DNA of 63,796 nucleotides, the filler included, from Kipferlia bialata (taxonomy: Eukaryota): assembly GCA_003568945.1 (NCBI GenBank). It is 4 parts of 4 records of this genome, joined end to end, with 100 filler letters (N's around TTAATTAATTAA, not from the genome) between each part and the next. Parts side by side here need not be neighbours in the genome. Positions count along the whole stretch, not along the records: positions 1 to 19,666 come from BDIP01000182.1; positions 19,767 to 34,236 come from BDIP01000183.1; positions 34,337 to 60,870 come from BDIP01000184.1; 1 more part is not named here. One strand, given 5' to 3'. Every line of letters begins with the position of its first letter. Position 1 is the stretch's first letter. A program made the translations under genes and the position numbers. Below are positions 14,556 through 60,078 of the stretch, one piece after another. The notes under the pieces were generated by a model, which was not told where the DNA came from, did no database searches, and saw nothing but the letters and a program-made list of their open reading frames with translations.

Positions 14556-17500
14556 GATGCTCAGGACACCCTGAACAAGGCCCGTAAGGCCCTTCCCACA
14601 AGCAGTGAGGTATGGGGTCTATTCTTATGGCATTCACGACATGTGTCACGAAACATGTACCCTTCCCCCCTCTATCTATCAACCATATTTGATATTTGCA
14701 CTATCTCTTGCATATTCTAGTGAGTAACCCCACCCCAGGTGTGGATTGCCGCCGCTGCCCTGGAGGAGACCAGAGGCTCTGGGTCACCAGAGATCATATC
14801 CCGCATCCTCAAGAAGGTGGGGGCCGATGTCGCTCTTTTTAGCATACTTCTATTATGGTGTCTCCTTCCGCATTTGTTTTAGTCCTTCTCTCATCGTCGA
14901 TGTGTGTCTATCTCCGCTGTCTATCCACGCTGTCCTGACCCCCAGGCTCTGAAGGCCCTGGCCAAGAGAGGGGCAGAGCACTCCAGGGAGCACTGGATCC
15001 AGGTGGGTGGAGATGTGTTCTGTACAGCTGCAGGTGTCAGGTGTCAGGGGATGTCCCTGACACCTTGCCCATGGATTGTATTATCATACACATATCCCCA
15101 TCGTGTGTCCTCCCCCTTGCCTCACTGTCAGGAGGCATACTCTGCCGAGGGGGATGGGTGTGACATCACAGCCAGGGCCATTGTGCAGGTGGGTATGGGG
15201 TGGATGGGCGCTGTCATTATCTTGGCAACCTCTCATGTCACAGAGGACAGTTTGTCAATTCATTTCTTTCCTCTCTATCTCTCTCTTCTGACTCCCAGGC
15301 TGTGTTGACTATGGGTCTCCAGCCAGACCAGTACAAGAGGTCCCTGATCTACGGTACGTCCATTGTGCGTGTGTAGTATGTAGCCTCATTGCCATTGAGT
15401 ATCTGATCCCCCTCACCCCAGCTGGCAAGCAGGCCTGCCTCGAGCACGACAGGCCTGTGTGTGGGGTGGCCATGGTGGAGGGACTGCTGCAGATGGACGC
15501 AGGGTTTGAGAAGGTATGTAGTTGCACTGTATATATTCATAGATAGACTCTGTGTCTGTATATGTATAATGTGTGTCCCCTGTCCTCACCTTCAGAGCAC
15601 CGACGTGTGGGTGGAGCTTATCCCCCTGATCCAGCACACCATCAGGCGCTACATGACCCAGATGAACCAGAGGGTGAGGCTGACGTGTATGCACATACAT
15701 AACGTTTATATACTCGCACCCAGCATTGCCTACATTCGTATACTTGCTGACTGACGATACCTCCATTGGCTGACAGATACTGCTTATATCGGCTGACTCT
15801 CAGGTGTCGGTGAAGACTGAGGGAGAGAGGGAGCAGGAGAGAGACGCAGAGGCCCAGGCAGAGGCAGAGGCCGAGAGAGAGAGAGAGAAGCAGGGAGAGG
15901 CCGGTGCTGAGGGGGACGTGCAGATGGGAGAGGGAGAGGGAGAGAAGGAGAGGGAGGGGGTCCTCGACCGAGACGCCGAGGCCCTCAAGAGGTGGAGGGC
16001 AAAGCTCAAGGCGGTGCTCGACCAGGTGGGGGCACACTTTCTCTCTCTCTTTGCCTGTGTATCACAATGCCATTCCCTCAATCCCCCTCCTCACCCCCTA
16101 GGCCATTACGGCCATCCCCACCTTCGGCCCCTTCTACCTCCATGCCGCCAACAGTGCCCTCGGTACGTGTATATACATTTGAATGTACTCTTATGGAGAT
16201 ACAGTATTATGATCTTCGTTCCTCCCCCTCTAACCCCAGAGGATCCCTCCAGAGGCCCCTCCGAGGCCAGGCCTATGCTCAAGAGAGCCCACTCCCTGTG
16301 CCCTGGGGACTACCAGGTGCAGGGTCATATTGTGTTGTGATAATGATACTGATACTGATACTGATACCTGGGGACTACCAGGTGCAGTGGGGGAATGCGG
16401 GTCATAGTATTTACCAGTGACAAGAAGTGTTGCACATGAGTGTTCTCATATTCACAGCATCCCCTCCCTCTCTCTCACTCTAGGTCTGGAGGGCTGCATA
16501 CCGTCTGGAGCTCGATGAGGGTGATGAGCAGGTATCCGTTTGTGCTTGTAGATGAGTATATAATTGAATCCAGTGTTATGCTGTCTTATAGTGTGCATAT
16601 ATACAATACCTGCATGTATGCCACTGCCTATGCCTATCTCTCTAGTCTCCATATCCATACCCATCCTGCCCCACTCCATATAGTATGCATGTGTACAGTA
16701 TGTCCCACCCCAGGGTGCCAGGGAGGTGCTGAGGCAGGCCAGGCTCAGATGCCCCAACGTGGCCAGGGTGTTTGTGGACAGGTATCATATATAGTTGATA
16801 TATAGATACTGATACTGATACAGGGTGTTTGTGGACAGGTACCACCTCTCTTCGTGTCTAACTGCCTACCCCTCACCCCAGCGCTGCCCTTGAGCGTGAC
16901 ATTGGCACCCCCCTGGATGAGCTGGTGATCCTCAAGCAGGGCGTGGCCGTGCACCCCACCGACATTGACATGTGGATGTCTTCCATAAACGCAGCAGCAC
17001 GCTACCAGGTATCCCCCATGTCTCTATATGGGTACATTCATCCCCCTCTGCCCTCTAATTGATGTAGACATCTGATACCAGGCCGAGCAGACGAGACTCA
17101 AGACCGAGGTCAAGATGGAGCCCGTCAAGATGGAGGTGGGTGTGGGTGTACGCTGCCTCAGAATACTATTCATTGAGTACTATGTGGTTCATGCAATGCG
17201 TACCCCAACCTCTCCTCTCTGACCCAGGGCGATGCCGAGGTTGCCAGGCTCAAGGCCCTGGCCGACAAGGCAGCCAAGGAGACGGAGGTGGGGACGGATG
17301 GATATGTAGATATATATATATATATACATATATTGACATGGCAGCCAAGGAGACAGAGTAGAGAAGGGAGGATGTCAGCACTGTTACTGTACTCTCTCCC
17401 CATCCCTCACCCCAGATTGAGACCTTCTGCGACCCCCTTGCCATTGCCTCCAAGGCACTTGGCATCAACCCAGCATCCTCAGCCCTATACATCGCTGTGT

Positions 17501-18788
17501 CAGGTACGGTCCTCACCCACATGTGTTGACTGGCATGTCTTCTCTCTCTCTCTCTCCACACCTCAACCCTGGGACATGTTACACCATACCCTGTATGTCC
17601 CTGCCTCAGTCTGTCTCCCTGTATGCATAGGTGCCTCACCCCCCAGACCAGCACCTGGTCAAGGGCCAGCGGAGCAGGGGCAGGGCAGTCCTTGAGAGGG
17701 GCATCCAGAAGTGCCCAACCAGGTACGCACTCTCTGTATGTGGCAGTATCCGTGATTGTATGTCTGATGCATATAGCCTTCTACACCTATACTTACTGTC
17801 AGTGAGGACATGTGGCTGTCCCTGGCCAGACTCGAGCTGGGAGACGCCAAGAAGGGTGAGCGTGATGTGACCAAGGCACTGTCCGTGCTGTCCAGGGCAC
17901 TCAGGGTGCTCCCTAGGTATATGGGCATGTATATACAGTAGAGGACACCAATGTGTATGAGTGACTCATTGTACAACATCAATCGTCAGCCCCACACCCA
18001 GGTCCCCCCGTATCCGAGGTGCTGAGACCCTTCTAGTGGACACCAAGTATCAGAAGAAGAGGCTCATCGACGCTGTCAAGGTGTGTATGCATGTGTATTC
18101 AGGCTAGGTCGCATACCCTCCTCCCACCCCAGACATGTGGAGACCAGGACACAGTCATCCTGGCCACAGCGTCCAAGGTGTTCCACAACCAGGGTGAGGA
18201 TGGCGTGTATGCTACTGCACAACGCACAGTCCATACAACTCAAATATATTGTTTCATTGTATCATTGGCCAACCCCAGGCAAGCAGCGCAAGGCGTCCGA
18301 GTGGCTTGTCAAGGCTCTGAACACAGAGACTGGCGCCACAAACGGAGACCTCTACGCCCTCGCACTTAAGGTATTGACAGTAACTCTATATATATATATA
18401 TGTGTGTTCTACAAGTCCCCCACCCCCCCTTACCCCAGTACCTGCGCATGGGGGCCAAGGACCCTGACCCTGAGAAGCAGAGGGAGAGGCTGGCGCAGGA
18501 GGCCGAGATTGTGCGCAAGGTGTCTGTGACCGATATTGACAGTGGGGTCATCTGGATGAAGGTGAGAGACGTGGAAGTGTGATGTATTCATATGTTTGTA
18601 TTGTATCTTGATTCCCACCCTGAGTGCCTTGACCATACTGATACTTACACTGACACTGATACTGACACTGATACTGATACTGACTCTGATGCCAGGTCAT
18701 GGAGGACCCAGCCTCCAGGGGCAAGAGTGTGCGAGAGGTGCTGGACCTGGTGGTGGGGAGGGTCCGGACTGACTCCCTCGACCTCTAG
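14556..18788 (+). CDS. PRP6: Pre-mRNA processing factor 6 (U5-102K, HAT/TPR repeats), multi-exon, 5'-partial
   Basis: Spliced peptide DAQDTLNKARKALPTSSE|VWIAAAALEE...RILKK|ALKAL...SREHWIQ|EAYSAEGDGCDITARAIVQ matches the Prp6 signature. Also RAVLERGIQKCP|SEDMWLSLARLE and KASEWLVKAL...GDLYA. TAG at 18786-18788. Confidence 0.9.
18636..18695 (+). repeat. (ACTGAY)n hexamer array at the 3' end of the last PRP6 intron
   Basis: atactgatacttacactgacactgatactgacactgatactgatactgactctgatgccag. Confidence 0.85.
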
Positions 18789-19766: not shown

Positions 19767-19773
19767 CCCTCAG

Positions 19774-26753: not shown

Positions 26754-29700
26754 TCACTTCCTGTCCCCCTCCCCCCCCTCCGGCATCATGTGTGAGACTG
26801 GGGGGGGTATGGTACTCGGGTGCACCTGTATGACACACATCGAGGAGCAGGGGCGCTTCTTGATAGAGGCCCTGGGGGTGGGTGGAGGATGTGATATATA
26901 TATTTGCATATCAAATGTATCTTTGGGTAAGAGGAGAACTTGTGCTTGCAACTCTAAAATGAAACTGCAATGTTCTACAATCTATACATGCACTGTAGGC
27001 TGTTGATATATATGATCACAGTCATGTATTAGAATATAGACTCATCCATGTACCCATACTCCAACATGCCACCATCCCGGCACCTCTGTGTGACACATAT
27101 ATATACACAATGTACATACCCACATGACTACCATACATCTGTGTGTGTGTATACAATGCTATTATCTATCTATATAGTCAATATGCCACTGTCATATCCC
27201 CTACCTCTGTGTGTGCGATGTGGACACCGTGACTGTGGCACATACCACATCTGCCACTCCTGTGCAGTCTGGGAGGGTGAGGACCAACTGTACTATACTA
27301 ACTACACATTGAATGATACACAAATGGCTCTCCGAAAGTACATACAGTAATGCCCGTACCTCCACACTGGGGGAGTAATGCACCGTCCCTGGGCAGGTCT
27401 GGAGCTATGGTTAGATACTGATGGGCAAGGACAGAATGCATCCATCAATACATTCTAGTCTCTCAAAGTGGAGTATAAATGCATTGCGGTAGTGTATGTA
27501 TGCATTGGAGTGTGGGTAGGATCTGAACACATACAAACACATACCCTCCAGGATCTGCCACGTGTCCGTGACAGTGTCATAGGCCGCAAAAGGGGCCTGG
27601 TATTAGTATAGAGGGGGCAGCCTAGGAGACATGACCTTGTCCACGTGGTATATGCAGATATATATCGGTGTATGTATCAGACTCACATATGTATATGCAG
27701 TATAGTGTATCAGTATATAGGTATCACAAACCTTGTCCCAGGGGGCTGTGTCTGGTGTACCGTGTCAATATACAGAGACACACACACACACACATACATG
27801 TACGTATATATATATATATATACAAGTATACACCCACAATATATATACCCACCTTGTCCCTAGATGGTGTGTCTGGTGTACAGATAGACACACACATTTA
27901 CATACATACACTATCGATGCATACATTCTCCGTCGATACCCACCTTGTCCCTTGGTGGCATGTCTGGTATGGTGTGTTTCAGAAGAGACATCCGGTCCGG
28001 GTAGTTATAGTCCCCTATGCCACCGGCAGACCGCCTGACGTTACATGTTTATCATTATATATTGTTATGTAGTTAACTATATAGTTATCATGAATATATA
28101 TCGACAGTGACTCCTGGCTAAGTACTAGGCAGTGTCAGTATCAGTATCAGCCTGACGTGACATGTATATGGCTACATATACGTCAACGTGGCATACAATT
28201 ACACCAACACTCAAAGTAGTATCCATGACTCCAGGGATGCCTACCAGTTAACGAACCCACCTTGTGACTATATGTCTCCCTGTTGACACTGCTGTATGTG
28301 TGCCGGCGGTGCTCCTATAGAGTCTGGCAACGATGTCCTGTATCAGTACTAGTTTCATATGCATTGTAGTGAGGGATCGAGGGCACCTATATATGAAGTA
28401 GGTATGGGTTACCCAGTCTAGGTAACATACCATAATATACGATCATCAAATTGGATACAAAATGTACACATGCATATATGTAAAAACTATGTAGATCAAC
28501 TTGAACCATGAGATCATAACTTGTAGCACGGTCCACCTATTTGCGGGGGTTTCACACACGTACATTGGTGTGTAGTAATTGACATACATATACCGTTGTA
28601 CCCATATGAACAATGCCCAAATCCATGAAACTATCATCTTTGTTCCTCTATCTATGTACCTACATATTTGCACCTATATCTATATACCTCGATAACTACC
28701 CCTGGGTCTACATGTGTTCATATATACACATACATATGCACACACACATAGGTAAGAGAATACCCGCACAACTATATCCACTGCCTCATACTATACCTGT
28801 AGCACTATCCCTGGGGGTGGGTATGACATGGGCCTGCCTCCCAGCGCAGCAAATGGGTCGTGGTGTACAAGCCTGGTGTAGGGTAAGACATAGCAGGGTA
28901 TACCATAGTATGCCCTATATATATATATAGGGCACCACTCATGCTGCTTCCCTCTAACCGAATACACCACGCTGCTACTAAGGTAGGAGAGTACATCAAT
29001 ATATACCCCAATACAGCTGTGATATTGGGATATCATTCATGGGCATGCGTATATGAATAGGTGTGTTTTCTCATGACACAACTGTACCTCTCCCTCCCTT
29101 GCTGCTGTGCGTACTTGGTCCACCCACCCCCAGGGGAGACAGACCCATGGCATGGGGTGAGAGGGTACATGATCGAGTATACACACACACACACACACAC
29201 ATACACACACACACACAAATATATACATATATATATATACATTCCATAGCGTCCATAGCGGTGGGGAAAGAGTATGCATCAGTATACCCACAGTGTGAGA
29301 CGACAATTCATAGTGGCACATTTACATGCCATACTTACTGTATACTCAGCATACAGTATATAAACCGACTGCAGCCAATATAATATACATAAATATATAT
29401 ATATAGGCTGTGTATATATTCACGCACACACATTCATCCATTGTCTTCAAATATACCCGGTCTATGTACATCTCTATCTCAATATATATACATATACATA
29501 CCCAGCACATGGAGTGTGTCTCCAGCCAGAAATTCAATCGGCAGTATATATACATATACGTCTGTATTCTTATCTCTCTCTCTCTATATATATATATATT
29601 CATATTCATGTACATATACACACACATATATATATGTATATGTACATACCCAGCACATGGAGTGTGTTCCCAACCACAGCAACGGGCATACGGCTAGTGC

Positions 29701-32700: not shown

Positions 32701-34107
32701 AACAATAGAGAGAGAGTGTATCAGAGAGACATATTTAGAAAGAGATACCTACCTGCCCAGCCGCAGTGCCTGGGGTGATACACCGTGTGTATATACATAT
32801 GTACATACATTTATGCATACCCATCTTATACGTGTATCGTGATGTACCTGCCCAGCCGCAGTGCCTCGTGTGATACATCAATGGGTGTGACAGTGGTGGC
32901 ATTGGGGGGGAGGGACCGGAGGGCATCGGGGACACTGGGGGTGAGGTATATTTATGAATGGTACGTGTATATCATATTGGACATCGGATTTGAAATGTAG
33001 AGTGCCATATATACACACTCCCACACCTCATGTGTATGGAATATAGAGTCAGGAGTATGAGTGAATATCCATATACACCATACACACAGAGAATCCAATA
33101 CATCCACATACCTATGGTGCATGGCACAGTCCGTGACACGTGTGGCATCTCTCTGTCTCTCTCTCTCTCTTTCTGCCTCACTGCTTCTCTCTCTATATGT
33201 ATACTCTCTCTCTATGTATTCTCATGTAATCAATACAATATAATATCAGTCAATACATCCATCCAAGTGGGTGTGTGTAGAGGTACCTCTTGTGTATAAC
33301 ACAGTCCTTGGTATGGGTGGCGTGGGTGTGGGAGACGCCCTTGGACGTAGACTGTTATTGTGAGGGTGAAGAGAGAGAGAAAGGGAGATGTGGATCAGGT
33401 GTATAGTTGCAAATCAATCGACAATACCGACTGTGCAACTAATGAATAGATAGATTCCTGATGCACACCTTCTTGAATGACAGCAGCTTGTATGGCTTGT
33501 GTTCATAGCACATCTCCCACCTCTTGCCCTTGGCCTTGTCAGAGTATCTGATGATGAGGTGGGGGTGTACAGGAATACATATTTGTATATAATTATACCT
33601 ATACTATATATGTATATATATGCATTTATATAATATATTATTATAGAATTTAATATATATATGACAGTAATATACTATATATATATAGAGAGAGATATGG
33701 GGATGGAGATTTGTCACCCTGGCCTGGTCAGAGTATCTTAGGCGAGGCTATATGAATACATATGCTTATCTATATGTACATCTAGAGAGAGAGAGGTCTG
33801 TCACCCTTGTTAGAGTACAGGGGTAGAGAGATAGATGTAGACGGTAAGTAGAGAGCTGAGGATTGGACTATCATCTAATGTATGCAAGTATATATATATA
33901 GGTGTATGTGTGTGAGTGGTGTGGCAACTGTGCAAATAGGAGGCCAGTCAATATCTATGTATATATATATATTTTGTAGATCCATAGTCAGTCATCGCGT
34001 GAATGATGTATGAATATATATCAGAGAGTGAGTGAGTCATATACACTTAGTAGATACTTACTTCACTATGCACTCCCCACACTCACAGGCAATCAGGTTG
34101 GCCCTCC
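26754..34107 (-). CDS. Kelch-like beta-propeller protein, many micro-exons, 5'-partial
   Basis: Exon peptides MPVAVVGNTLHVLG, PLFAAYDTVTDTWQIL and TSVYDRLDQTWRRGP are Kelch-type. Last exon ASIKKRP...GDRK*. The full exon chain was not resolved, and the span could hold more than one gene. Confidence 0.55.
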
Positions 34108-34336: not shown

Positions 34337-34671
34337 CAAAAGGGGGTGTTCAGGGGTGTTTCCCCCCCCCCCCCCCCTATTTCCCTCTACATATGCCCAA
34401 GCAGATACCTACCCCGTAGTGTATAGTCTATAACGCTTCCTCCATATAAGGATGGGTCTATTCTTATGATGATGGAACGGGGATCATACATTACCCGTCT
34501 CTCTCTCTCCCCTCCCCTCCCCAAACTCCTTCTCTCTCCCTCTCCTTTCTCTCTCCTTTCTCTCCTTCTCTCCTTCTCTCTCTCTCTCTCCCCCTCTCTC
34601 TGTCTTACTCTAGGATCTTGTGCACTATTTAAATATTCATAATCTCACTGCTGCCTCTGTTGCCACATGTA

Positions 34672-34703
<32 letters not shown>

Positions 34704-43800: not shown

Positions 43801-46800
43801 ACAAAGACTGAGGTCCCCGAGGAGTTGGATGCCGTGACTGTGTCTGTGGTGTGGCTCTTGAGGATGAGTCTACCGGTGTTGACAGGTATTTTATCTATCT
43901 CAACCTTCCATGGTGACATTCTAGTCTTCGGCGGTATTCACTGAATAGTATTCACTGAATCTGACAGTGTTATACTAACCCCATCAGGTGGTGTGGCTTC
44001 CATTGTCCGGTCTGCTGTTCTCAAGGCCACCACATCCAGAGACAGGGACAGAGTGCTAAAGTAAGTACTATAATGGTATTCAGCATTTGCTGAGAATGTG
44101 CTGAACCCTGTCACTTGGTAACTCTGCTATTGGCCTTCAGTTAAAGATTGCAAATTGCATATCTGACCCCAAGATATGACTCTGTCAGAGCCATGTTAGC
44201 TGCTAGTGAGAATGACAATGAAGGAGAGAGAGATACAGGCCTAGCCAGACTGGTACTACCAGCAGCCACAGCCATGGTGGAGAGTGGGCATAGCCTATAT
44301 AGGTGTGTAGTATGGTATACATATTATATATATATGTATATATAGTGTATGGAGTGTTACAGCCATAGCCATGGTGGAGAGTGGGCATTCATTGTATCGG
44401 TGAGTAATATGATATGTTAAGAGAATTTGTATTTATATCTTTATGGAGCTTCTCCCCGCGTGTCACTGCCATGGTTGAGAGTATACACAGTCTGTATAGG
44501 TTAGCCATAGTACTATGTTCACACACTGTCTATATATATTAGAGGTGTTGTATGACTTTCTTAACCCCCAGGGTCCACTCCGACTCCCAAGGCCTCCCCC
44601 CTGACCAGGATGTGTGGGGCATGGTAGACACAGATACACACGTAGGACAGGTGAGGGATGAATTTACACTGTAGATTTATACTGAATGGTGAAGCAATAC
44701 CTTATCTCCCCCCTGACCAGGATGTGTGGGGTATGGTGGATGGCAACACACACGTGGGACAGGTGGGAGATGTAATATGACTATAGACTTATACTATAGT
44801 ATAGTGTAGTTGTATCGTATCTCCCCCCTGGCCAGGATGTTTTGGGCATGGTAGACACAGACACACACGTGGGACAGGTCATATGCCGTCTATATGTAGT
44901 ACTTTACAGCACGCACTCTTCATGTAATATCCAACGTGCAGGTCTTCCGCATCGCTGTGTCCTGTCTCTCCAGACAGCAGCAGCCCATGCCGGCCATACA
45001 GGCATACAGGTATGATACCAGTCTATATATTTTAGCTATATTCATCAATATATACACCTACAATGGTTATTGTTCTGCTTCCTGCTATTTAACCATCAGG
45101 AAGAGTGTGTTGCGCAAGGCCAGAGACGCTGCCAGAGCATCAAGGTATGGTCAATAAGCGATGCTTTATACAATCTGTGACGGTCAATTCATTTTCCTTC
45201 TGTTTCATTTCTTATCAAATAGGAAGGCCACCGCTGCCCCTGAGACTGGTGTCAAGAGACCCTCTAGGGGCAGACCTACGAGAAGGGCATCAACTAGAGG
45301 AAGTAGGGCCAAGAGGCGACCCACCCAGTCTGACCCATACATTGACACACTGAGCAAGGGACTGGGCCTGGCATTTGAGGTGTGTATGAGTATTCTGAGT
45401 ACATGTATTTGATGGTTGTGGTGATATTTAAGTTCTTAGTCACACCCAGGCTCAGTCCCAGGATGTTGATGAAGATGACAGTCACGAGGAGTCAGAGGCA
45501 GAGTCAGAGGGAGAGGGGGAGGGAGAGAGTGGTGTTGCAGGATGCACAGCTGGCAGTGTGTGCGTGGGTGTCCTGCTTGCTGCATGTGCAGTCTCCATGC
45601 TAGGTGTGTCTGATATATCATCCATAAACCATGAATCATTCACTTTCTCTCTCTTTGGTAGAGATACTATTTGGTCGACTGACGTGAAATGGGTTATTGA
45701 AATGGGTATTTTAATGGTTGATTCTTCCTTCTGTCTCTTACCCTAGGCATCCCAGACTATGTGCTGCAGTACTTCCCAGCAGAGAAGGACGCCCCTGAGG
45801 TACGTGGACCTGTAACATCTAAGTACTCACAGTTTGATACACTCACACTATGCTTTCCTCTAAGCTTGACACTGTATCCTTGCCCGAGACTCTAGAGTTT
45901 TCATGTACTCAATTACGATACTACGCATTACGTACTCACTCTAGGTTGACACTGTCACCTTGCCCAAGACTATAGAGGGCATGGATAGCATCTGCCAACA
46001 GATGCAGCCATCGGAGTTATATGCATTCACCAACCAGCTTAAGGTTTGTGTGTCCACTGTAGTGCTACTTGGTACATTCTACCTTTTCATATATACTGGA
46101 TACAAATACTATGTCATTCTGACTCGAGATCCTGCTCCATGAGGCAGAGTCCTCCCCAGATTCACCTCTTGCACAGCTGTGTGCTATAGGTAGCGCCATC
46201 CACTCACTAGGACTGTCAAGGTAGGCATGGTGGTATCTCTGTCCATATGAGAGTATTACCCACAAGTACAGGTGTTTGCCCATATACATGAATATCTTCC
46301 CTCCATCCCAATGATTGGTGGATGTTTCTCACTTCCAGGTGGCTGTATCCCAATGGCACATGGTCCGTTGTGGAGGCAGTGTCCACCCTGGTACAGTCAC
46401 AGTATATGGAGGGCGCCACCATATCCACACATACCAACACCCCACTAGACACAATGTCGGAAAGTGTTCTAACCATTGATGGTGTCTATCAGTACGACCT
46501 GGATGAGCAAGAGGGAGAAGAGAGAGAGAACGCCAGTGCCAAGCCTCCGTCGAGGTCACTTACGGCAGTCATTTGTAGTCTATTGACTGACGTTCATACA
46601 GCTATAGTGGATCACGAGTCACAGGCAGAGAGAGAGAGACTGGCCAAGGCCGCAGAGGAGGCAGACGTGGTAGAGATCATTCCATCTAGTGGTGCCTCGC
46701 CTGAGGATGATAACACTCCTGGCATCCCATCCTTCACAGCTGCCAACAGTGTTGCATGCCTACTAGATGCATTGAGCGTGTACAGGGATAGGGTGGGTAC

Positions 46801-49800
46801 ACCTTGTCAGCTTCTGATGCAGGGTGCTGCTAGGATACTCCAGACACCCACTGGTATGAGAGTGGGTGCATGTGTAGGAGAGGTATCAGCTGCATTCACT
46901 GGCGTCACCTTGGATGAGAGCACTGTAGACCCTGAGACAGCTATGGCCAAGTATGAGGCCTGTCTATCTACTCACAGAGACTCGTGTGTGATATTCCACC
47001 ACCTATCAGCACAGTACGGCATAGCTAGGGGAGAGGGGGTGCTACGCTGCCTATCAGCGAGGATCACTAGAGGGGACTTTTTCAAGGACTTAGACGCTGA
47101 GACGTGTGTGCCCTTACTCGCTGGCCTATCACACGTTCTCAATGGTGTATCCAGGGGAAGTGTGATAGAGAGAGAGTTGGTAGGGAGTATGACTGATGCT
47201 CTCTCCCTCATTGACGCACATGGTGGCCACCATACAGATGCGCTGTCTCTCTCTCTTCCTCACCCCTTGAGCGGTGTGCAGAGAGTGACCTTCAACACAT
47301 CAGAGTACCCGGAGAGTAGTGACACTCTGAAGAGGTACGAGATTTGTAGTATACTATTATTGTCAATATACATATTGCTCATGTTGGTATAGTCTTCTAG
47401 TACTAACCACCAGATACATGCGGTACTCGGATGCCGCTGATGACGCCGCAGTGGTCTGCAACGAGCTCATAGAGGTACCACAATACAAAATTTTAATGTT
47501 TAAGTGTTTCTTTCGCTACATGATTCACTAATTCCAGGCTAACAGGCTCTGCGGTGATGATGGGGAGGCAGATGCCCACCTTGCATTGACCGATACTCTC
47601 CTGGCAGAGGTGTGTATACTTAGACAAATACCATGTAATTCCTGTGAAATGGTTTATGATTCAGTACACCTCTCACTGTTGTCACATTGAACACCTTACT
47701 CTTCTAACTCAGAACTCCGTCCTTAGCCGTCTCACACCCGCCACTAGCAGCATATGCTCTCTCTCCACCTTGGTAGAGAGTATGTGCCGCCAATCTGGCT
47801 CTGAGGGTGTAGAGGCTGCTAAGGCCGTGATCCGTGTCATCGTTCCTGCCTCTGAGCTCACCGGATACATCGGTGTACCTACCACACCGGCTACCACCCC
47901 TCCTGCTTCTATTGAGAGTGATGGTGTTAGTGATGCTGTCTCGGTTTATAACACCTGGCTAAGTGGTGTGTGTGCTATTCTTAGAGAGAGAGCCGGTCTT
48001 GGTTGGCTGGCCTCCCTGGCCCCTTTCTCCCCCTATGCTGCTGAGTGGCTAGTCAAGTATGGCATATTCAGACTGACGTACCCCCTGTCATGCTGTGTGT
48101 TGAAGGTATAGTCATAGTGCTATTATTGATACTATTGATAAGAGTAACTGCATAGGATTGAATTCTCATCGTGACAACATCGGCAACAATATAATAATGA
48201 ACATTATATTGACATCTATATGATATATTGACTTACCCCTAGGGCACAGACAGGACCGAGGTCCTTGGCCAGATATTCAGTGTTGTGACTGGTGACTCAG
48301 CTGGTGACAACTCCCTTGTGGTACCTGTCCTGGCTGATGCCTTGGTGTATGTGGGACATATGATGTTAACGGCTAAGGTATGAATATAGAGTGCTATACT
48401 ATATATATACACTCTCTACACAATTGGTATTGTACATCTCCTGGCCGATGCCCTAGTCTATGTGGGACATATGATGCTCACGGCCAAGGCTTGTGTATAT
48501 GTTGTGTATATGCAGTATAGAGTAATAGTGTTTATATACATAGCATATAGTACTTATCTTGGTATACATGCTGCTCACTGCCTATATCAAAGTTGTATTT
48601 CTGTTATTGATGTCTATTAGAGCGATCATTGCTCACCGCAGACCTTTATCCACCGAGGCCTCAACGCATACATGAACGGGCAGCCAAACGATCCATCCAA
48701 GGTATGACACTTACTCTAATAGCGATAGTACCTGCATTATGACTCTAATGGATATTAGAGTTGCAATTGTCAGTACTTGTCTCTTACCCTCAGGACATTG
48801 GCCGCATCATCACCAACTACTCTCTCAACCTGTACCTCCCCTTCGGTGTCCCCTTGTCCATCTCCACCGCTGTGGCATCAGCCGCAATAGAGTCTGGATA
48901 CAACCACGTAGCAGGATGGATCACAGAGAGCCTCGGGTACCACATTGAGAGGGTTAGTACTATCGCGTTGTATTCGGTATCTAAATAGTTTATCGTGTAG
49001 AATAAGGCCCTTCCTGATACCAGATTGAGTGGCAGAGACAGGCTGTCTCTGGGTCGCCTACCATTAAGGGCGCACTTGTAGATGATGTGTTGGTCGACGC
49101 CCTTCAGGTGAGTATGTGTATGGTCTTACACTATGCTAGAGTACCAGGTCTTACTCGATGGGACTTCTGGATCTCTTCTAATGCACCAGGCTATCAACCG
49201 TCAGCACCAACTGGGAGCACGGGTGGTTAGGCAGCTAGTCAAGGTATCTGGTGTAGTGTATGCATGCGGGTATTTCCGTAGTATTCTCTCTCTGATCTAT
49301 ATGTATTAGTATGTGTCTGTGTTAATGTATGTAAACAAACCACCAGGTCATGCACCAGATGCCCGCTGCCTCCGACCCCTCGTTAGTCAGTGCAGACAAC
49401 CCCACTGCAGCTGATATTGCTGCTCTTACCTCCAGGGCACTGCTGCACACATCGCCAGAGGTATTCTATATCTATATATATATCACCCTTCTCGCCTCCT
49501 GTATGTGTTTGGTCAAGAACTGCAATGTCCTATGTATATAATCGTGTGTCTCACATTCAGGATTGTGTTTCAGATTCACCGTCACGGACACAATCCGCCA
49601 CTGGTGGATATCTCGCTAGATTCGACACTGATGACGGAGTCGAGCCAGTGCAGGAGCGGCTGAGAGCGCTTACCTACCAGGTGTATCATACACATCTCTT
49701 TGTTTTGAGGAATAGTGAACATCTATTGTTCCGACATGTAGAGAGACTCGCAATTGTATTACCAACCTTCTATATGAAAGTCCAGTCACATATTCTCTCG

Positions 49801-52800
49801 CTGACTCCCAGTCCGAGCTCTCCATGGCGCTTGGCAAGCACGCTGATGCCCTAGAGACATGGGATCAGGCTCTCACTCTCTCTCTCTCCCACGGTGGAGA
49901 GACAAGCTCCCAGCCACTCTCTCTTCCCTCTCTCACACCCACCATATCCATGAGTACTGACAGAGGAGAGAGTGTGAGGGAGAGAGATACCTCAGCAGAG
50001 GCCGGTCTCAGGCAGTGTCTGCTCTACAGTGGAAACAGCTACCTCCACCAGAGGCTAGGCCGTGACATGCAAGCGAGTAGAGACGCCGTGTACGTCCCAG
50101 ACTGGCGTTTCACCCATGACCCTCAGACAACGCCTCCATTCCCCACAACTGCCAATACAGCCTTCACAGCTATAGTGGGTGCTACAGTGTCTAGAGATGC
50201 CAATCGGGCACTAGCCGCGCTGCATAGCGGTAGGTCGGCTGTACTAGAGGCCATTACTCACACTAAGGGAGGTAGTGATGTGGGTATGGCTGGTGTCTCC
50301 TCTACCTCCTGGGCGGGTGTGTTTAGGGAATGTACAGCAGAAGCTGGGTCTAAGAGTGCCGATCTGCAGGGTATGGGGCTAAGGTCAGCACCCACACAGG
50401 AGCTGAGGCTCAGTACTGGGTGTGTGCTTTCAGTATTAGAGGGAGAGGGAGAGAGTGATACCGATACTGGTGCTGTCAGTGCCCTGAGGTCTATTGGTCA
50501 GAGGGCCAAGGAGACATACGGGAAGCTAGGTATGGGATTCATACAACGACAAATACTATCTTTGTAGTGTACATAAATGTGTGTGAGAGAGTAACTATTG
50601 CTATAATGCTCTCACCCCAGGCATGTCACAGCTGGGCACTAGGGTACTCAGCCAGTGTGGGTTACTGTACCACTTACTCAACGGTGGGTCCGTGGGAACT
50701 GGTGATAAGGGGAGGAGTGGTGAGAGGGAGGCTCTGAGTGCCTCTCTGTCACTTACAGAGACCCCTAGGCAGGCACTGTCCTTAGAGGCAGCTAAAGGTG
50801 GATATAAGTATGGCTCTATTTCACAACAATTTATTTTGTATTCATGTGTTGATTCTTCCTGCAGAGTTACTATTCTGGCAAGAATATATGTTAATCACTA
50901 ACTCTAGCTTCGTACTCTGGCTACCTAGAGATATCCGACAAGCTGCGGAACCAGGACTATATCAAGCAGGCTGAGGATCTAGGTAAGGAGTCTACGTGAG
51001 TAGGTTGGTTCCACACAGCGTTAGAGTGTTGATTCGTATTCCTAGGTATTATAGTGTATTTGACCCTCAGGCAACCTCGACAACAGACCCTCTGCTGCGA
51101 GAGAGAGAGACTTTGGAAAGAAGAGACAGGTCTCGGAAGTGGAGGTAAGAAGCATTACTCTCTCTCTGATTTCTTACTCCTCTGGTCCTGTATATATCGT
51201 ACAAAGATATGTATTACATTCTTGAAGGTGACAGTTATCTATACAAACGAGACAGAAGCCTTCTTCGTCTTCTTGCTATCCAGTGTACTTCTTCTATATG
51301 TCCTCTAAATACTACTAACCCTAGCGCTTCCTGAACCAGACCGAGGCCCTGATCGAGAAGCGCAACTCTTTCCTCATAGATTCCCTCACTGCCTATCTGC
51401 AGCACTTTGCAAAGGGAGATATTTCAGGTATGATCTATTCACTTGGATCTTTCAACGATAGTACCTGGTATTTACGTTCTCCTTGTCTAGAAAACACCTT
51501 GGTATACTGTCATTGAAATAGTATATCTCTCTAACAGTGAGGCTCCGACTCTCTGTCTGTGTTCCGTATCATCAGACCCCTACTTGATGTCTGTGGGTCT
51601 GGCAAGACAGACAAGAGTGCTAGCACTGCAACATCACCTGGCAAGGTACAGACATATCAATACAATTTCTCTAGTTCTCTCATGAACCCTGTGTTTATGA
51701 TATTTCTACACGATGGCACTCACGTGTTGATTTGCTATTTCTACACGATATGGACTCACGCGTAGTATGGCAGTGTCCAGAAGGACAAGGAGGTACTCAT
51801 CCTGCACAAGATGAGAAGGGTCACTAGGGACATGCTGATACACGGCATAGACCCACCAACAGCCAGGTTTGTCATATTGTCTGAGAACATCTCAATTACT
51901 CAAAGTGTCTTCTATATGAATATCATGCATATGTATTATTAGTATGAGTACGTTGCACTCTAACACCCAGCCAGGTAATCAAGCTACTGTCCGAGCACCT
52001 ACTCTCCAGAGATGGATCCCCACCACTGGTATCTAGTCACCACCTGCTACCCGCTGCAGTCATCCTGGTCACTAGGTATATATCGTGTAGTAAAGTAAAT
52101 TGTAGTGGCTTTTGTCATCCTAGCCACTGGGTATATCGTGTAGTATATCTGCATTATATGATAATGTTCACATCGTGTAGTTGGATGACTTTGTTTCTTA
52201 TGCTAGGCTGGCCTCGCAGATCCCAGCAAGTGCTCCACCTACACCGGCACCACCGGCTAGGTATGGAACAGAATGATTTGTTGTATCACTATGTACTGAA
52301 TACAGTTGGACATACATACTATATCACATACTCTCCCTATATATTTGCTGCTACTATACTTAGATTCCACTATATATATATTTATATATATATGTGCATA
52401 TTGTTACTACCAGGATGAGCTAGATGACATAGGCTGGGAGTCAATCACTACGATGGCACCATATCTCCATAATGATTGAGTGCTGCTACACATATATACT
52501 ATAATACATATATATTTATATATGTATTGATAGCAGGGATGAACTAGACGACATGGGCTGGGAGTCTATCACCACCATGGCACCAGTCTCATACAGAGGC
52601 AGGGAGAGGGAGAGAGAGAGGGAGAGAGAGAGGAAGAGGTCAAGGGAGAGAGTGCCATCCAGAAGTCCTAGGGAGTCATCTCTAGCAGCTGCCAGAGAAC
52701 TACTCAGGTACATATCCTGTACATATACTATATATACCTGTATAGAAATACTAAGGTACATGGGTACAAATTTTGTAGATACATGGAAATGAACTTTATA

Positions 52801-55800
52801 TATGCAGCTAATGTCCAGGAACGTTGTGCTTAGGATGGCCGTCGACCACCCCTTCCACGTAGTCCCACACCTGATAGCAATCGGAGGCTGTGAGGTACAT
52901 TCTGTGTGCAACCAATACCTATTAATAATCAACGTGTTCAAGATGTTAGCAAAATGTATATCATCATATCTATATATACGACATGACTCCTCTATCGCGT
53001 AACATGCAGGATGTACTGACTGATCTGTTGGGACCAGTTGGCCAAGAGATGACAGTGGATCACTCAGTGCTGGTGGCAGCCGTTCAGGGTTCGTCTCAAT
53101 TGGGTCCATTATCTAGGACTAATTATCTACTTTCTGTATCAATATCTAACTATCAGGTTGCCAGGCAGCCGTAGAGTTCTATCCTGAGGTCTTTAGACTA
53201 GGTAAGAGGAAGATATTTTTACCATAGCCGCTTCTACCAAGAATAGCGGGATCTTTTCCGTTATTGCAGAATATATATATTCATTTACAATTGTTAGTGA
53301 ATAGCGACACATAGCGAATGTATTGTTACTTACCCCAGCCACCCCCTCCAATTGTGTAATTCTATACTCTATTATACTCTCCTCAAATATGTCGCATAAC
53401 ACAAAATTAGTATTGTTACTTACCCCAGCCACCCCCTCCAAGAATGACAGTCACGTGTTCATTACATACATGTATATACACATGGTAGACTACAAGTATA
53501 TGTCGCGTCATTCTATGTATAGATAGATTACTAACCACAGCCACGCCCTCCAAGAATGACAGGCACCTATCTACACTCTTATCATACAACCCTACATAGT
53601 ATGACAACATCTCTAAGACCCAATTGTTTAGTATAGTGTGTTACTCCGTTCTAACCCAGCCACCCCCTCCAAGAATGACAGGCACCTGTCTACACGGGCC
53701 AAGAACAAGCTCAAGACACACGTCAAGACATTCAACATGGCTGTGAGGTATATATGTCTCTCTCTCTCACACACACACTCTCTAGGGGTTTCGTTACTGG
53801 ATCTCACTCCTTAGGGGCACCCGGTCTAGGACCACTGGCAGACGCAGTGGCCATCTGATAGCAGTCCCATCCTACACGGTGAGTATATGTCTAAACATAT
53901 ATTGTATACCCAAATGCTATGTGAATACTCTTACCCTCAGGTCCCTGCGAGACATGCAATCTACAAGGGCGGGAAGGTTCAGACACTTATGCAGTACAGG
54001 GTACGTACACCGCGTGAGTTATTGATATTATGTAGTAGATACTGGCATCGCGTTGTATTTCGGTAACCCCAGGATACCCCCCTTATCCGCGGAATCTCAG
54101 AGAATATTGCTGCTCTGGGTGGTGTGAATGGTAGTAAGAAGGTACAAGGTTATTGTAAAGTATAATGAATATGTGTTTAAACAGCATAAATATAGTCAGA
54201 TATTATTACATGTATAAATGTATATGCATGTATTTACTGTGATACTTCCTTACCCCTAGGTCTCTGTGCATGACACCCACGGCATGGTGCACGAGGAGTG
54301 TCTCAAGATGGGTGGGTATTGATGTATATATATATATATGTATGCGTATGCGTGTGTGTGTGTGTACCACATTATTGTAGTACATGAGTTGTATGTGTGT
54401 ATCAATTTCTGCCCACGAGGAGTGCCTCAAGATTGGTGGGCATGGGAATATGGATAGTTATACACTTCATCAATATTGATAGAGAACTAAGGCGATGATT
54501 AGATTGAAATGAACGGATTGTACCATCAATATACACATGCATCATTCTGTCATGATATACTGACCATCAGGCAAAGACGACATGCTCCAGACCAACCTCG
54601 TCATGTCCTTCTTCGACTGTGCCAATGTCATTCTCCAGAACCAGAGGGGGTTCAGTGGCACACCAGTCAGAACATACAAGGTAATACTCGATTAGTGACA
54701 AGTTACTCGTTGCCATACTCTATTAGTGGATATAGAACCAGACGGGGTTAAGTGGAACACCAGTAAGGACATACAAGGTATTACTCGATTAATGACAAGC
54801 CACTCCATACTCTTCTTTTCTCGCTTCGTGACATGCAGGTTCACCCGTTCTCCCAGAGCTCTGCCTCTTCGTGTGGAGTGCTGCAGATGGTGCCTACGTG
54901 CATATCATACCACCAGTGGCTGGAGTCAGGTGTGTTGGAGTATATACCATGAAAATAGCAATATATGGGTATATAGAATGCATTTCACAGAGTATATGTA
55001 TATATATAGTACGAATATTTATAAGTGAATGTATTGAAATAGTATAGTGCCAACGTGCTTATCGTAAAACCAGTGGCTGGAGTCAGGTATCTGGTGTGAC
55101 GCACAAAGTCACAAGTGAATCATATAACCGTCACATATATGTATATTGTAGTAAGTACATATATGCAGTAATGGGTATATTGAATATATCAGAGAAGGGA
55201 ATTATTGCATTGAAGTGTTTGTCCGCTTACCCCCAGGTGACCCCTGGAATGACGGTGTCCCTGCCTGTTCCAGATACATGCTGCCAGGTATTTTTTGTAT
55301 ATAAATGTATATATATACATAGAAGGTGGATACGTACATTGGACAAGGGTTTTATCGATACATGGAGTTCTCTGTGCCTATAGGCCTTCCTTTTCTCCCT
55401 CCTTATCTCTCCTTCTTGCGCTTTGCTGTATAGAGTCATCTGCTGACTCTTTGCCCATGCCCTCTGGGGTCTTTCTCTCCCTCTGACACCCTCTCTCTCT
55501 CCATATGGTATATGTACTTACATACTTATACAAGGCTGTATAGAGTCCTCTGCCGACTTTGCCCATGCCCTGAAGGGTCTGCAGATGCAGGGACACCAGG
55601 ACAGGGTAAGTGTATTGCTATAGACNNNNNNNNNNNNNNNNNNNNNNNNNNNNNNNNNNNNNNNNNNNNNNNNNNNNNNNNNNNNNNNNNNNNNNNNNNN
55701 NNNNNNNNNNNNNNNNNNNNNNNNNAAATATATGTATATTCATAGAATAGTATATATACACATATATACATGTATGGCAACATCCTGATCGACCAGACAA

Positions 55801-57005
55801 GTGGGCAGGTATATTCATTCATATATACATTCATAGTATAATATATATCCATTTTGATATATTACTATGAATAGGATATATATGATAACTTTCTGATCGA
55901 CCAGACAAGTGGACAGGTAATATGAACACCTGATGTATACCCAAACTCCCTCAAAATTTCAAATATTACTCGTTCCATATATTTCTCCACGATACTCACC
56001 CTAGGTTGTGCACATTGACCTAGAGTATGTGTTCAATGACTCTAACTCCCTCACAATATCATATAATTACGCGGTCCTCCTATTTTTACACGATACTGAC
56101 CTCAGGTTGTCCACATTGACCTTGAGTATGTGTTCAATGACTCTGACTCCTTGACCATCCCTGAGAAGTGCCCGGTCAGACTGACCCAGAACGTGGTGGA
56201 TGGGTTAGGGCCGGCAGGTACGGGTATAGAGTGGCAGACTCTCTGGGTGGACTTTAATGTATTACTTTGAGCAACTGAATACGTATCATGATAGGTTTCT
56301 TTCGTGTTTGTTGTAATGTGCCTCTACTCATTACAGGACTCAATGGTCTGTTTAGATCGACTGCCAACAGTGCACTGGCAACACTAAGGTACGATAGTTA
56401 CTGTTTGGATTCTATGTACTAAGGGCCTGTGGGTCTCTATACATACACTTTTATGTATATGTGTGTATATACTATTATATACTATTATTCTAATGTATAT
56501 ATGGGATATGACTCATTGTGTTCTTACCCCCAGGGAGCAGCGTGACATGTTCCTTGTTCCTGTCTCTGTGGTGGCAGAGTCACCTTCATTCAGGTACAGG
56601 ATACTCTATATTAGTATATGATTACATATAGGTATCGGTATAATCCGATAGCTATTTGTAGATTGATGGAAAGAATAGTATGGGATATAGATGTAATATG
56701 TATATAATATATTCGTGTGCATACACTAACCCCAGATGGGGTGAGAAGGCTGACACCTCTACCCTCGGAGCTAGGGCAGTCCAGGGAGTAGCCCACAAGC
56801 TAGGTACCTTTAACGCGTAGATTGTCACTCTATCGATTAGAACCACAAGTATGTGTATGCCATCGTGTAGAATCCTAACCCTCCAGCTGGTATTGTGGAT
56901 GGTAGGCACCGCTCTGTGGATGAGCAGATGCAGCACGTGGTGCAGGAGAGTACTGACCTGGACAACCTGGGCAGCATGTACAGTGGCTGGAGGGCGTGGC
57001 TGTAG
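34821..57005 (+). CDS. ATM: ATM/Tel1-like PIKK serine/threonine kinase (helical N-terminus, FAT, PI3K-like kinase, FATC), dozens of exons, 5'-partial
   Basis: VLRMAVDHPFHVVPHLIAI; GGVNGSKK; CLKMGKDDMLQTNLVM; VRTYKVHPFSQSS..GVL; VVHIDLEYVF...IPEKCPVRLTQNVVDGLGPAGLNGLFR; FATC SVDEQMQHVVQESTDLDNLGSMYSGWRAWL* (TAG 57003-57005). These motifs are closer to ATM than ATR. That the exons at 34.8-50 kb belong to the same gene is inferred from strand, splice phase and expected size. Confidence 0.8.
35191..35731 (+). repeat. Cluster of partial exon duplications around the exon at 35293-35388
   Basis: The exon 5' part is copied at 35191. The 3' part (gtggtgtcatgtcccaccagactcagccagaagaagagg) recurs near 35440, 35540 and 35690. 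Confidence 0.9.
53320..53695 (+). repeat. Four tandem copies of an acceptor plus exon start (cagccaccccctcca...)
   Basis: Copies near 53325, 53416, 53530 and 53652. Only the last continues as an open exon. Confidence 0.9.
55626..55725. other. Assembly gap (100 N) inside the kinase domain
   Basis: Run of N. The expected catalytic-loop exon(s) are absent from the sequenced flanks. Confidence 0.97.
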
Positions 57006-57514
57006 AATAATTATATTCAATGACCTGTTAGGGGGGGTATTTCGCAAGTTGAATAGATAGATCCTAGGCAGCATGTACAGTGGCTGGAGGGCGTGGCTCT
57101 AGATTATAGTTATAGTATCGTGCCAACACTTGCATTTAGGGAGTGATTGCTATGTTGAATAGATGGCTATACTAAACAGTTTACAAGGTAAAGTGATAGA
57201 CCATAGTGTGGATGAAACAATAGCACTCTATTGGAGTACCCTTACAATGAAAGTTTCATTGAAACATCTGTCTAGGCTCAAGAGTCTTGATTCAGTATTG
57301 GTTTAGTATCGATTTAGTATAGATTACTACCTCTGATCATCAGCGTTGACCTGAGAGGGTTCGGTATGTCATAAGTACTCTACATTGAGTCAAAAGCAGC
57401 TAATTCGAACCCTACGAGCACAAGTGATGCCGCCACAATATGTAAGGCAGAACATATCCCAGTCAACATCATCTATTTGACAGTGTAATAGGTAAGTACT
57501 ATGATATATCCCCT

Positions 57515-60078
57515 CTAAACTAGCTTGTGCCACACTATCAGCACCACCATGCACCCAAGTGTCAGTATGCGGTGGATCCATATCAAGAAGGAGTGGTATC
57601 TCTTGGGGGTGAGGCCTGGCAGTGAGGATAGAGTAGTAGGTTCGGAACTCTTTCTAGCTAGTCACTTCAGTGACATTCCTGGTGTCTGTCCTAACCCTCC
57701 CCCCCTAGTGCCAATATCACATGGAGAATAGTATGTAAAATTAGTATTTCAATATATATTGTACAGAGGTATACTACAGATACCTAATAGTGGCTTCTTC
57801 CCCGCCTTCCTCCTAGTGCTGTTGAATCTGGCATAGGGCCTCATGGTCCAGAAGAGACAGCCGCTCAGGCACAGTACTGGAGTCAAACATATATTCGATG
57901 ACATATATATATCTATAGACCAGAACTATGGAACAGACAGCCACTAAGACGGCGTACTTGTGTAAGAGGTCGACTCCCTATATCATTTACGGAAATATTA
58001 TCCGGTCCTATATGTAGTATTGGGTACTATTCTTTGAAGTAAGGAGACTAAGAATCTTAGTCTAAGATGTGTATTGTGTATCATGATTGGGAACTCATAC
58101 AAATAGTGTGGTATGGTCAATAGTAGCTTGGATTGTTTCCACTCACCTCCCATGCTGATGATGCCCCACCACCCAGCGTCCTTGAAGTCCAACTCGAACT
58201 CGACGTGGATGTCGCATCCTAGAAGCCTGATGTCATGTAACAGTAGTAGAGGCTAAGGCATGTAACCACTAGTATATTTGTTATGTGGCATATTTCCTAA
58301 ACTCTAACTCCAATTCAACGTGCAGGTTGCCAACTATATGTTCATTGAACGTGCAAACTACTATCAAACTGATCTCTGTCAACAGTAGGCGGGAGTACAC
58401 ATCATATTCTTGATATGTAATACAAAATGTATACTACATTCAACTATTCTACACTCCAATGCTTAAGGAGATCTGACGTACAGGTGCTTGATGATGTCAT
58501 ATCAGTAATATCATATAACATATTTGTATACTACATGTATATACTCAGCACTGGGATAGATAAGGATGACTGATGTGCGACAATATCATATATATGGACT
58601 ATATCATGTGCAATACACGGATATAGTAGGATGACTGACGTACAGCAGGTGCAGGACACCAAAGAGGAGAGCGAGCAGGGCCACAATCACATGAGCAGCT
58701 GAAGTGAGATTGATGAACATCATATAGTCACTATATACTCTCTCACAAGCAAACAACGATACAATACTGATGCAACAATAAATTGTTAAATTGTAATGAT
58801 AATTGCAACTCAGAGAGTGTGAAGTTACAATGACAATTCTTTGGCTGTAACAGAGCATACTATACTGTCTGCAGTGTCTGGCTGTGTTACTAAAGGTAAC
58901 TAACTATACCTGTCAGGAGTTGTCCAAGTAGTTTGAAGAGTCGGTGGGCAAGTGGCTTCCTTGTGGTGAGACGAGAGGCAATGAGTATTGAATGGCCCTT
59001 GTTCAATTACTACTCTCCGGGCCCAATCTTTAGAAGGATGACTCAGTATTGGAGTAAGGTTGTGCTATGAAGTATTATGTGAACACTCACTTCTTGGTCT
59101 TTGGTAGTGTCCTGTCCCCCATCTGGTCTCTTGTCTCAGACAGTACCTGGGGGTAAGTGAAGACTGGGAGCAAAGTTTCTTCAAGGCATATATATATATG
59201 TATATTGTAATGGTGACCGTTCAATAGTCCATAATGTATACGTCAGTAGAAGGTTGGCACAGTTGATGGTTGGATATTGGGACAAACCTCTGCAGTGCGT
59301 AAGGGAGACGTCTCTTCCACTGGCTTTCTGGCGACAATCTGATGAAATTACTAATGACAAGCAGTAGCCAGGAGTAATCTCAATGGTTATATACTCCACA
59401 CAACACTAAGTTAGTGTCACTAACACATTGAATGATGATAGTACGACAAGACCCGTACCCTTTTCTGAGGCAATACTCGCCAAGTAATATTCGGTGTCGA
59501 CCTACCTTGTTGTATGCCTTCCGTAGCAGAGCGGCAGGCTTGAAGTGGAGGGCCACACCTGTTATTGAGATTACTCAAATTTACTATACCACTAGTGTAA
59601 CATAGGTGCAAGGTAATTGGAGTGGGGGGCCACACCTGGGCGACGGCAAGGAGGAGAGCTTCATAACACACACACTATGTACTCTGTATTTCACCACTGC
59701 TAAAGGCGGTTATACAGTGAATACTGCCATATATATACACACATCACACATGATACAAATAGTATCTAATAGATACTATCTATACCTGTAGCGAGTGCCG
59801 CTATCAACAGTGCCCCACTCAAGGTGCCAAAGGCACCTCCAGGGCCATCGTGGTCGTCATCGTCATCGTCCTAGTGTTACCATTATATATAGCATGTAAG
59901 CGTCCTCACTTCAGTCAATGCTGGCAGACAGGTATCAGTTACATATAGTACAGACAAATCGAGCATATGTGCTAATTATATGATGAAGAGAGGCCACCGT
60001 TCTTCTCTTTCATACCTTTGTCACGATACCTGTCAGCACCAGGGCATACTGAAGGCCCAGAACAAAGTCAGAGAGCAT
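57515..60078 (-). CDS. Small multi-pass membrane protein with His-bearing helices (possibly cytochrome b561 / ferric-reductase-like TM domain)
   Basis: Exon peptides MLSDFVLGLQYALVLT; GAFGTLSGALLIAALAT; AHVIVALLALLFGVLHLL; GWWGIISMG|VLCLSGCLFWTMRP; YHSFLIWIHRILTLGCMVVLIVWHK. The 3' end and the family are uncertain. Confidence 0.45.

Follow-up and report, generated by a model that had tools for sequence, protein, structure and literature searches.

The window analyzed here is a 63,796-nucleotide (nt) stretch of the genome of the free-living metamonad protist Kipferlia bialata (GCA_003568945.1), in which many introns carry a partial copy of the edge of a neighboring exon. We refer to these copies as echoes. 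Runs of N with the linker TTAATTAATTAA at 19668-19766, 34237-34336, and 60871-60970 are scaffold joints; because separate scaffolds meet there, genes on either side may be unlinked. The genome is a short-read draft in which 124,912 introns are counted and k-mers follow a diploid pattern, and the available portion of its description presents Kipferlia as the sole intron-rich fornicate within that study (PMC5874029). Our gene models came from a small self-trained parser followed by hand curation, which yielded seven stop-free models with 186 exons. On its first pass, the parser mistook many echoes for micro-exons.

Five genes host echoes. On the plus strand at 14556..18788 lies a TPR-type splicing-factor-like gene (23 exons) whose 5' part is missing. 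The initial annotation called it PRP6, a name that stays unconfirmed, the match being a weak one to TPR_14 (E 0.074). The minus strand holds the gene for a secreted CarboxypepD_reg-like protein, KIPB_001317 (20007..26089; 23 exons), and a gene labelled Kelch (27205..34107; 24 exons). One exon of the former is 100% identical to KIPB_001317 of K. bialata, and the model, with its CarboxypepD_reg-like domains, equals deposited protein P0001 apart from one exon of 18 amino acids. The Kelch name and family are unconfirmed; the single 21-residue exon tried gave no Pfam match. The ATM-like PIKK kinase gene (plus strand, 34821..57005; 81 modelled exons, with an N gap at 55626-55725) carries 38 of the 57 echoes. 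Its label was borne out by a long exon that matches the deposited K. bialata ATM protein (3251 amino acids) and by PI3_PI4_kinase and FATC domains; deposited protein P0002 contains 80 of the 81 exon peptides unchanged. The two ATM models disagree only at the N gap, at exon 41337-41438, which is absent from the deposited protein, and at 37547-37570, where the exon before 37625 is 7 residues longer in that protein. The fifth host is a membrane-protein gene (minus strand, 57515..59870; 9 modelled exons). A sixth gene, large and CarboxypepD_reg-like (minus strand, 4090..13185), encodes a protein of more than 2360 amino acids and, with 25 short introns (mean 80 nt), served as an internal control.

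Census and geometry of the intronic echoes

Intronic copies of exon edges are pervasive, as the initial annotation had claimed. A model-free scan returned 51 local direct repeats that are not of low complexity (distance 25-600), 50 of them within 16302-57103. Exon edges were then aligned locally with the adjacent intron, a score of at least 26 marking an echo. At that threshold, 30 of 186 exon ends had a match in the intron that follows and 17 of 186 exon starts in the one that precedes, compared with 0.29% of 31,453 non-cognate exon-intron pairs; inverted copies reached a score of at least 24 in only 1 of 372 cases. From 58 alignments, one in PRP6 (16069-16099) was discarded as a chance match to a pyrimidine-rich acceptor. 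The 57 echoes, all direct copies, belong to 46 exon sides and occupy 40 of the 154 modelled introns of the five genes, two partial upstream introns, and two stretches behind stop codons. ATM has echoes in 25 of 79 introns, the control gene in 0 of 25. Echoes are 13-72 nt long, the nearest copy lies 57-189 nt off (median about 100), and multi-echo series advance by about 90-140 nt. Echo-bearing introns are longer (median 250 nt, n = 38) than the others (104 nt, n = 141), a comparison in which two echo introns beside last exons are binned as echo-free. Genes with a higher GC content at third codon positions (GC3) tend toward fewer echoes than ATM (GC3 0.58).

The geometry of the copies is strict. 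Fifty-five of the 57 end no more than 11 nt from the boundary with the polarity of a direct, head-to-tail, boundary-spanning copy, and 36 of 38 downstream echoes run to the exon end, as 19 of 19 upstream echoes run to the exon start. Both kinds of boundary are duplicated, with the splice dinucleotide retained in 40 of 53, and no echo (0/57) spans a whole exon or holds both splice sites of its exon. Five loci are complete tandem units of 98, 100, 101, 112, and 115 nt. Spacer homology is detectable in 11 of 46, and 43 of the 46 spacers are no shorter than 39 nt; the shortest intron is 51 nt. On the intron side, ungapped identity is about 0.5 at +4 to +12, against a background of 0.3, whereas non-degenerate exon sites stand at 0.93. 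In sequence terms, this steep drop reads as the profile of two diverged functional copies rather than of one recent duplication. Recursive splicing via the AG|GT of an echo was considered as the cause of the 100-nt spacing and dropped, because upstream echoes show equal spacing and mostly do not start with GT.

Contigs of DNA run X1 are read-derived and drop rare variants, and the run is possibly the window's own source. They match the window with 0 differences at 36078-39696, 39910-52501, 52647-53349, and 53412-55090 (depth 436-464), and by our reading of eight pieces at least 23 of the 32 echoes of that stretch share a contig with their exon. Run X2 was taken as RNA by inference, not being so recorded, and its GT..AG joints indicate splicing. 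One spliced X2 contig (depth 8.9; 38290-40915) has 8 of 8 GT..AG joints as modelled, with 0 differences. It contains only the full exons and skips 8 of 8 echoes, so that normal splicing is undisturbed there; minor isoforms are invisible in contigs. Since DNA contigs bridge exon and echo and the spliced contig skips the echoes, they are neither stacked haplotypes, the misassembly against which a co-occurrence check had been proposed, nor parts of the main mRNA. Furthermore, which copy is called exon and which echo is independent of our choice, because deposited ATM peptides, the spliced joints, and five further spacings that equal the model lengths fix the assignment.

Outside ATM, echoes of exon ends lie in PRP6 at 16367-16381, 16821-16838, and 17335-17358 (plus strand). 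Branch-point-like hexamer arrays (TGATAC / ACTGAC) occur at 16338-16367, 16805-16820, 18635-18690, and 39320-39352; two arrays stand directly 5' of identical PRP6 echoes. The secreted-protein gene has echoes at 25594-25613, 25389-25406, 24110-24152, 22551-22572, 22158-22184, and 20280-20321, with another past its stop codon at 20007-20037 (all minus strand). In the Kelch gene (minus strand), single echoes at 33717-33736, 32753-32782, and 29502-29528 accompany two series, 30958-30992 / 30870-30888 / 30783-30802 and 27853-27877 / 27732-27765. The two differences of the echo at 32753-32782 make a consensus acceptor, and with a strong donor this could be a micro-exon of 17 nt. Echoes had been announced for 16300..57980 in all five host genes; the list of genes held, while the membrane-protein gene has a single echo over threshold, at 58300-58330 and outside that range, besides a weaker one at about 57930-57956.

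In ATM (all plus strand), the acceptor and first 62 nt of the exon at 34821 are echoed twice within 34614..34773 as a 98-nt tandem unit, with 12 mismatches apiece that are mainly silent and include one Arg codon swap. The end of exon 34821-34924 recurs at 35007..35063 (15 mismatches in 57 nt, the majority silent). Exon starts are echoed at 35194-35230 and 35977-36011, and exon ends with their donor at 35439-35488, 35539-35588, and 35690-35731 (100-nt tandem unit). Further echoes follow at 36538-36568, 36813-36836, and 37148-37177; those skipped by the spliced contig lie at 38444-38497, 38880-38908, 39523-39555, 39781-39837, 39909-39965, 40369-40422, 40673-40739, and 40793-40819. One 12.6-kb DNA contig spans, with 0 differences, those at 42039-42090, 42560-42610, 43149-43174, 44360-44399, 44464-44499, 44714-44762, 44829-44878, 45866-45897, and 48432-48488. 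The echo at 44360-44399 closes with a recoded Ser-Leu-Tyr-Arg, and those at 44721-44762 and 44836-44878 start at an exon-internal acceptor-like motif. Toward the 3' end, echoes lie at 52413-52461, 54414-54433, 55044-55086, 55425-55472, and 56005-56076; a series runs 53339-53351 / 53429-53458 / 53541-53576; homology extends 22 nt into the intron at 54734-54777; and the last exon is echoed with its stop codon in the 3' flank (57063..57102; 2 silent differences). Just past the N gap, 55776-55919 holds two copies of a kinase-domain exon end, whose parent exon may sit in the gap; the deposited protein seemingly uses part of one copy. Short, purely intronic duplications at 51700-51765 (acceptor region twice) and 52076-52190 (donor-side motif three times) indicate that the process extends beyond exon sequence.

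A few splice sites of the minus-strand genes are unusual. The open frame of the Kelch model requires a GC donor at 31770 and the acceptor CCCCAT in place of CCCCAG at 29151, and a second CCCCAT site, at 23367, precedes an exon (23355-23302) that deposited P0001 skips. The CCCCAT sites are possible candidates for GT..AT introns.

Codon-level divergence between exon and echo

Across all echoes, mismatches fall at codon positions 1, 2, and 3 in the numbers 56, 46, and 166 (chi-square p 2e-22 against an even spread), and the raw differences affect 94 of 1335 non-degenerate and 103 of 350 fourfold degenerate sites. The preference for third positions had been reported in the initial annotation, along with the expectation that a neutral duplicate should collect mainly nonsynonymous differences. 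That expectation was the wrong baseline. The proper null pairs a neutrally evolving echo with an exon in which silent changes still accumulate; simulated through identical detection, it gives a ratio of divergence at non-degenerate sites (d0) to that at fourfold degenerate sites (d4) of 0.54-0.68, with 41-45% of differences at third positions. A neutral copy beside a selected exon is already silent-rich, so mostly synonymous differences are by themselves no proof.

Measured against this null, the excess of silent differences is confined to ATM. For the refined ratios, alignments were carried through to the splice site, with 8 nt removed at the junction end. All echoes together then give a d0/d4 of 0.16 (confidence interval [CI], 0.12-0.23). 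The 38 ATM echoes, from 30 loci, have a d0 of 0.068 and a d4 of 0.55, a ratio of 0.125 (locus bootstrap 0.093-0.164) that compares with 0.43-0.68 over the null and all simulations; 55 of 842 non-degenerate and 82 of 211 fourfold sites differ. Third positions account for 137 of 201 ATM differences (p 3e-11 against 0.45), and the excess does not arise from sequence context, with a Mantel-Haenszel odds ratio of 6.1-7.4 after stratification. Eight synonymous codons, in ATM only, differ by two or three bases (six Leu, one Arg, and one switch of Ser family). Differences between echoes are likewise rich in fourfold sites (13/40 versus 19/171, p 0.004). In PRP6, the secreted-protein, Kelch, and membrane-protein genes, 25 of 50 differences are at third positions, a share too high for an even spread (p 0.011) but within reach of the proper null (p 0.28). 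The proposal that echoes have passed through protein-level selection consequently survives for ATM and is not borne out by the data for the other four genes.

At the level of the encoded residues, the differences look like unselected decay. Amino acid changes have a mean BLOSUM score of -0.44, compared with -0.41 for random changes (the observed single-base changes score -0.08), and a test for conservative substitution in the echoes gave no clear signal. There are 7 nonsense changes among 98 (4.1 expected) and 5 frameshifting gaps, and mismatches are slightly patchy (p 0.07). Taken together, the ATM echoes read as the product of two phases, in which divergence under coding selection would have been followed by neutral decay.

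Origin of the echoes

The echo architecture is that of the amphioxus "mirage", a tandem duplication of an intron-exon boundary. We favor, with moderate confidence, an origin by tandem duplication of exon-intron boundaries, in units of about 100 nt that are removed by splicing, with the ATM copies descending from two long-diverged functional alleles, likely joined by inter-homolog repair or recombination. Among the models offered earlier, capture from a diverged allele is the one that fits best. In a first step, a break would be repaired from the homolog, with synthesis crossing the exon edge into the donor's intron; out-of-register rejoining by microhomology would then leave the exon edge and the intron start doubled, one from each allele. 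Alternatively, a same-allele mirage might later recombine within its spacer with another allele before fixation; the present data do not distinguish between these routes. In a second step, the only survivors would be duplications that cross one splice site, because their extra copy lands in an intron or behind a stop. Finally, the captured echo would decay neutrally. Under this model, subtracting twice the d0 of 0.068 from the d4 of 0.55 would leave ATM with a silent divergence of about 0.4 at the time of capture. The echoes of the other four genes require no more than an ordinary same-allele mirage. A repair-gene inventory records PolQ, Msh2, and five Rad52 entries for K. bialata, which lacks both Ku70 and ligase 4 (PMC8516963 Supplementary Data 2). 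In yeast, repair synthesis is described as jumping to a 72% identical template, and microhomology-bounded tandem duplications arise (PMC12891019).

A broader and, to our minds, doubtful possibility is that repair between strongly diverged homologs in this protist, which lacks nonhomologous end joining, routinely leaves splice-junction duplicates of about 100 nt. Introns throughout the genome, by the thousands, would then archive extinct alleles that had diverged to near 0.4 at silent sites, intron growth would proceed mainly by this route, and past hybridization or hyperdiversity could be read from a single genome.

Several observations weigh against an origin from two alleles. An allele divergence of about 0.4 exceeds, to our knowledge, the silent-site diversity of most species. 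The excess comes from one gene, with the 19 echoes of the other four having a d0/d4 of 0.39 (CI 0.17-1.07), and among changes found in the nearest echo alone, the silent excess is not significant (4/40 versus 7/171, p 0.14). Six echoes equal the exon exactly, yet their spacers are unalignable. Run X1 offers no alternative letters over 20 kb at 90% likeness, in contigs that drop variants. No donor allele was found, both deposited-protein clusters being single-member; metagenome scans with long ATM exons returned no relative; and a profile search with ATM found only the gene's own protein, a search that a homeologue at 50-90% identity could escape. Finally, the yeast tandem duplications averaged merely 23 bp in the published text consulted (PMC12891019).

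As the cause of the silent excess, a faster-evolving exon is only weakly excluded, and we consider this explanation unlikely. Same-allele mirages would be snapshots of the past exon, whose silent sites would have changed at least 4-5 times faster than those of the intronic copy; mutagenic repair or allele-to-allele conversion restricted to exons might be responsible. Such an asymmetry would suit the tandem units with homologous spacers (98 to 115 nt, given above) and the exon-only changes in triples, which are nearly all silent (10 of 12, 7 of them from one locus). However, the nearest echo alone carries about as many fourfold changes as the exon alone (4 and 5; p 0.048 against a five-fold asymmetry), the three Ser codons at 44292, 44389, and 44489 would require two family switches, and bases on the intron side are not slow.

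We think it improbable that the echoes are plain mirage debris throughout, that is, same-allele duplications in which a neutral echo faces a selected exon and the silent bias is the expected doubling. Debris of this kind fits the third positions of the four non-ATM genes as well as the echoes with stops and frameshifts, but for ATM it is rejected by the third-position share and by a bootstrap upper limit of 0.16.

Hidden use of the echoes is, if anything, slightly harder to sustain. Echoes spliced now or recently into minor isoforms, as alternative halves, cassettes, or recursive steps, would place both copies under selection in cis. The retained splice dinucleotides and the spacers close to the shortest intron would accord with such use; 22 of 36 donors and 13 of 19 acceptors of echoes score in the real range, and 44721-44762 with its good donor is a possible in-frame cassette exon of 42 nt. 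Nevertheless, only 1 of 55 echoes offers an in-register path with decent sites (both above the 5th percentile of real ones), the spliced contig skips every echo it passes, two echoes lie past stop codons, and partial duplications would fall within the kinase domain. These results speak against the alternative or mutually exclusive use that had been suggested, and the turnover of which copy is functional, also suggested, is likewise unsupported, given the same path count and the lack of echoes with both splice sites.

Very little speaks for second-order selection, in which conversion or deletion in cis between echo and exon would remove nonsynonymous echo changes. Short direct repeats recombine, and mismatches are somewhat patchy, but forward simulations with conversion in one or both directions, or with deletion, gave a d0/d4 of 0.43-0.54 in 7 of 7 settings. 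An assembly artefact in which two haplotypes are stacked in tandem, with read length behind the 100-nt spacing, is hardly credible: the genome is described as a diploid short-read draft (PMC5874029), the divergence is allele-like, and support comes from contigs of a run that may be the window's source rather than from long reads, but read-built contigs with 0 differences over 3.6, 12.6, and 1.7 kb bridge at least 23 of 32 echoes, series hold up to three differing echoes, and no live allele could carry the stops seen in decayed copies.

Relation to known systems

Duplications across a splice site are known from other settings. In the accounts available to us of potato RdRp (PMC4974935) and the Rogers AGGT model, the duplicate inherits the splice signals, as in Kipferlia; in those cases the outcome is a new intron plus a piece of exon, whereas the Kipferlia copy is skipped and only lengthens its intron. 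The configuration for such a gain, with a donor in one copy and an acceptor in the other, was found for 1 of 55 echoes. The yeast template switches, as far as described in the consulted text, share with our preferred two-allele origin the capture of diverged homologous sequence and tandem duplication bounded by microhomology, but they are experimental and intronless, with in-register switches and short duplications (PMC12891019). For gene prediction, the practical consequence is that gene finders are misled by echoes.

Mutually exclusive tandem exon duplicates are homologous adjacent copies with a low ratio of nonsynonymous to synonymous divergence, and they are whole exons with both splice sites. 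Each such copy has its own acceptor and donor, unlike the echoes of Kipferlia.

The closest counterparts are the mirages of amphioxus, reported in the globins BflGb6 and BflGb9 and in Adh3 (PMC3087553) and in lancelet PGBD5 (PMC3902484), so the earlier impression that the pattern is undescribed does not stand. As presented in the available text, either boundary is tandemly duplicated there, splice signals are often retained, normal splicing is unaffected, and units are of similar size (150-160 bp, 10-72 bp, 60 and 108 bp). The portion of the K. bialata genome paper available to us makes no mention of intronic exon copies (PMC5874029), and our literature searches, mostly at the level of listings, turned up no reports of mirages in protists or of a synonymous-site excess in mirages, a question on which the mirage alignments of the globin paper might bear. 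PMC6679479 deals with the spliceosome alone, and PMC13685798, on ciliate introns, had no bearing. The globin paper describes concerted evolution inside clusters, and its main text, as consulted, is without a synonymous-site analysis (PMC3087553). Copy numbers that are unstable between haplotypes or cells also count among the traits of mirages; the Kipferlia data comprise contigs of one sample. Kipferlia differs in being a metamonad protist in which about a third of one gene's introns are involved, mostly with a single extra copy instead of arrays, in having mostly unalignable spacers, and in that a silent-site excess was measured. When tested, one mark of a two-allele duplication, copies that had diverged under coding selection at their origin, was shown for ATM only.

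The describing paper, in its accessible text, calls the mirage mechanism unclear (PMC3087553), and the codon-level signature renders that mechanism testable. In Kipferlia, it could point to a mechanism of intron lengthening and provide an estimate of past allele diversity or hybridization without population samples. If the copies were indeed diverged from the start, mirages would arise between homologs and not by slippage on a single chromatid. Such an inter-homolog origin, if true, would suit the occurrence of mirages in very heterozygous animals, amphioxus being described as a highly heterozygous host.

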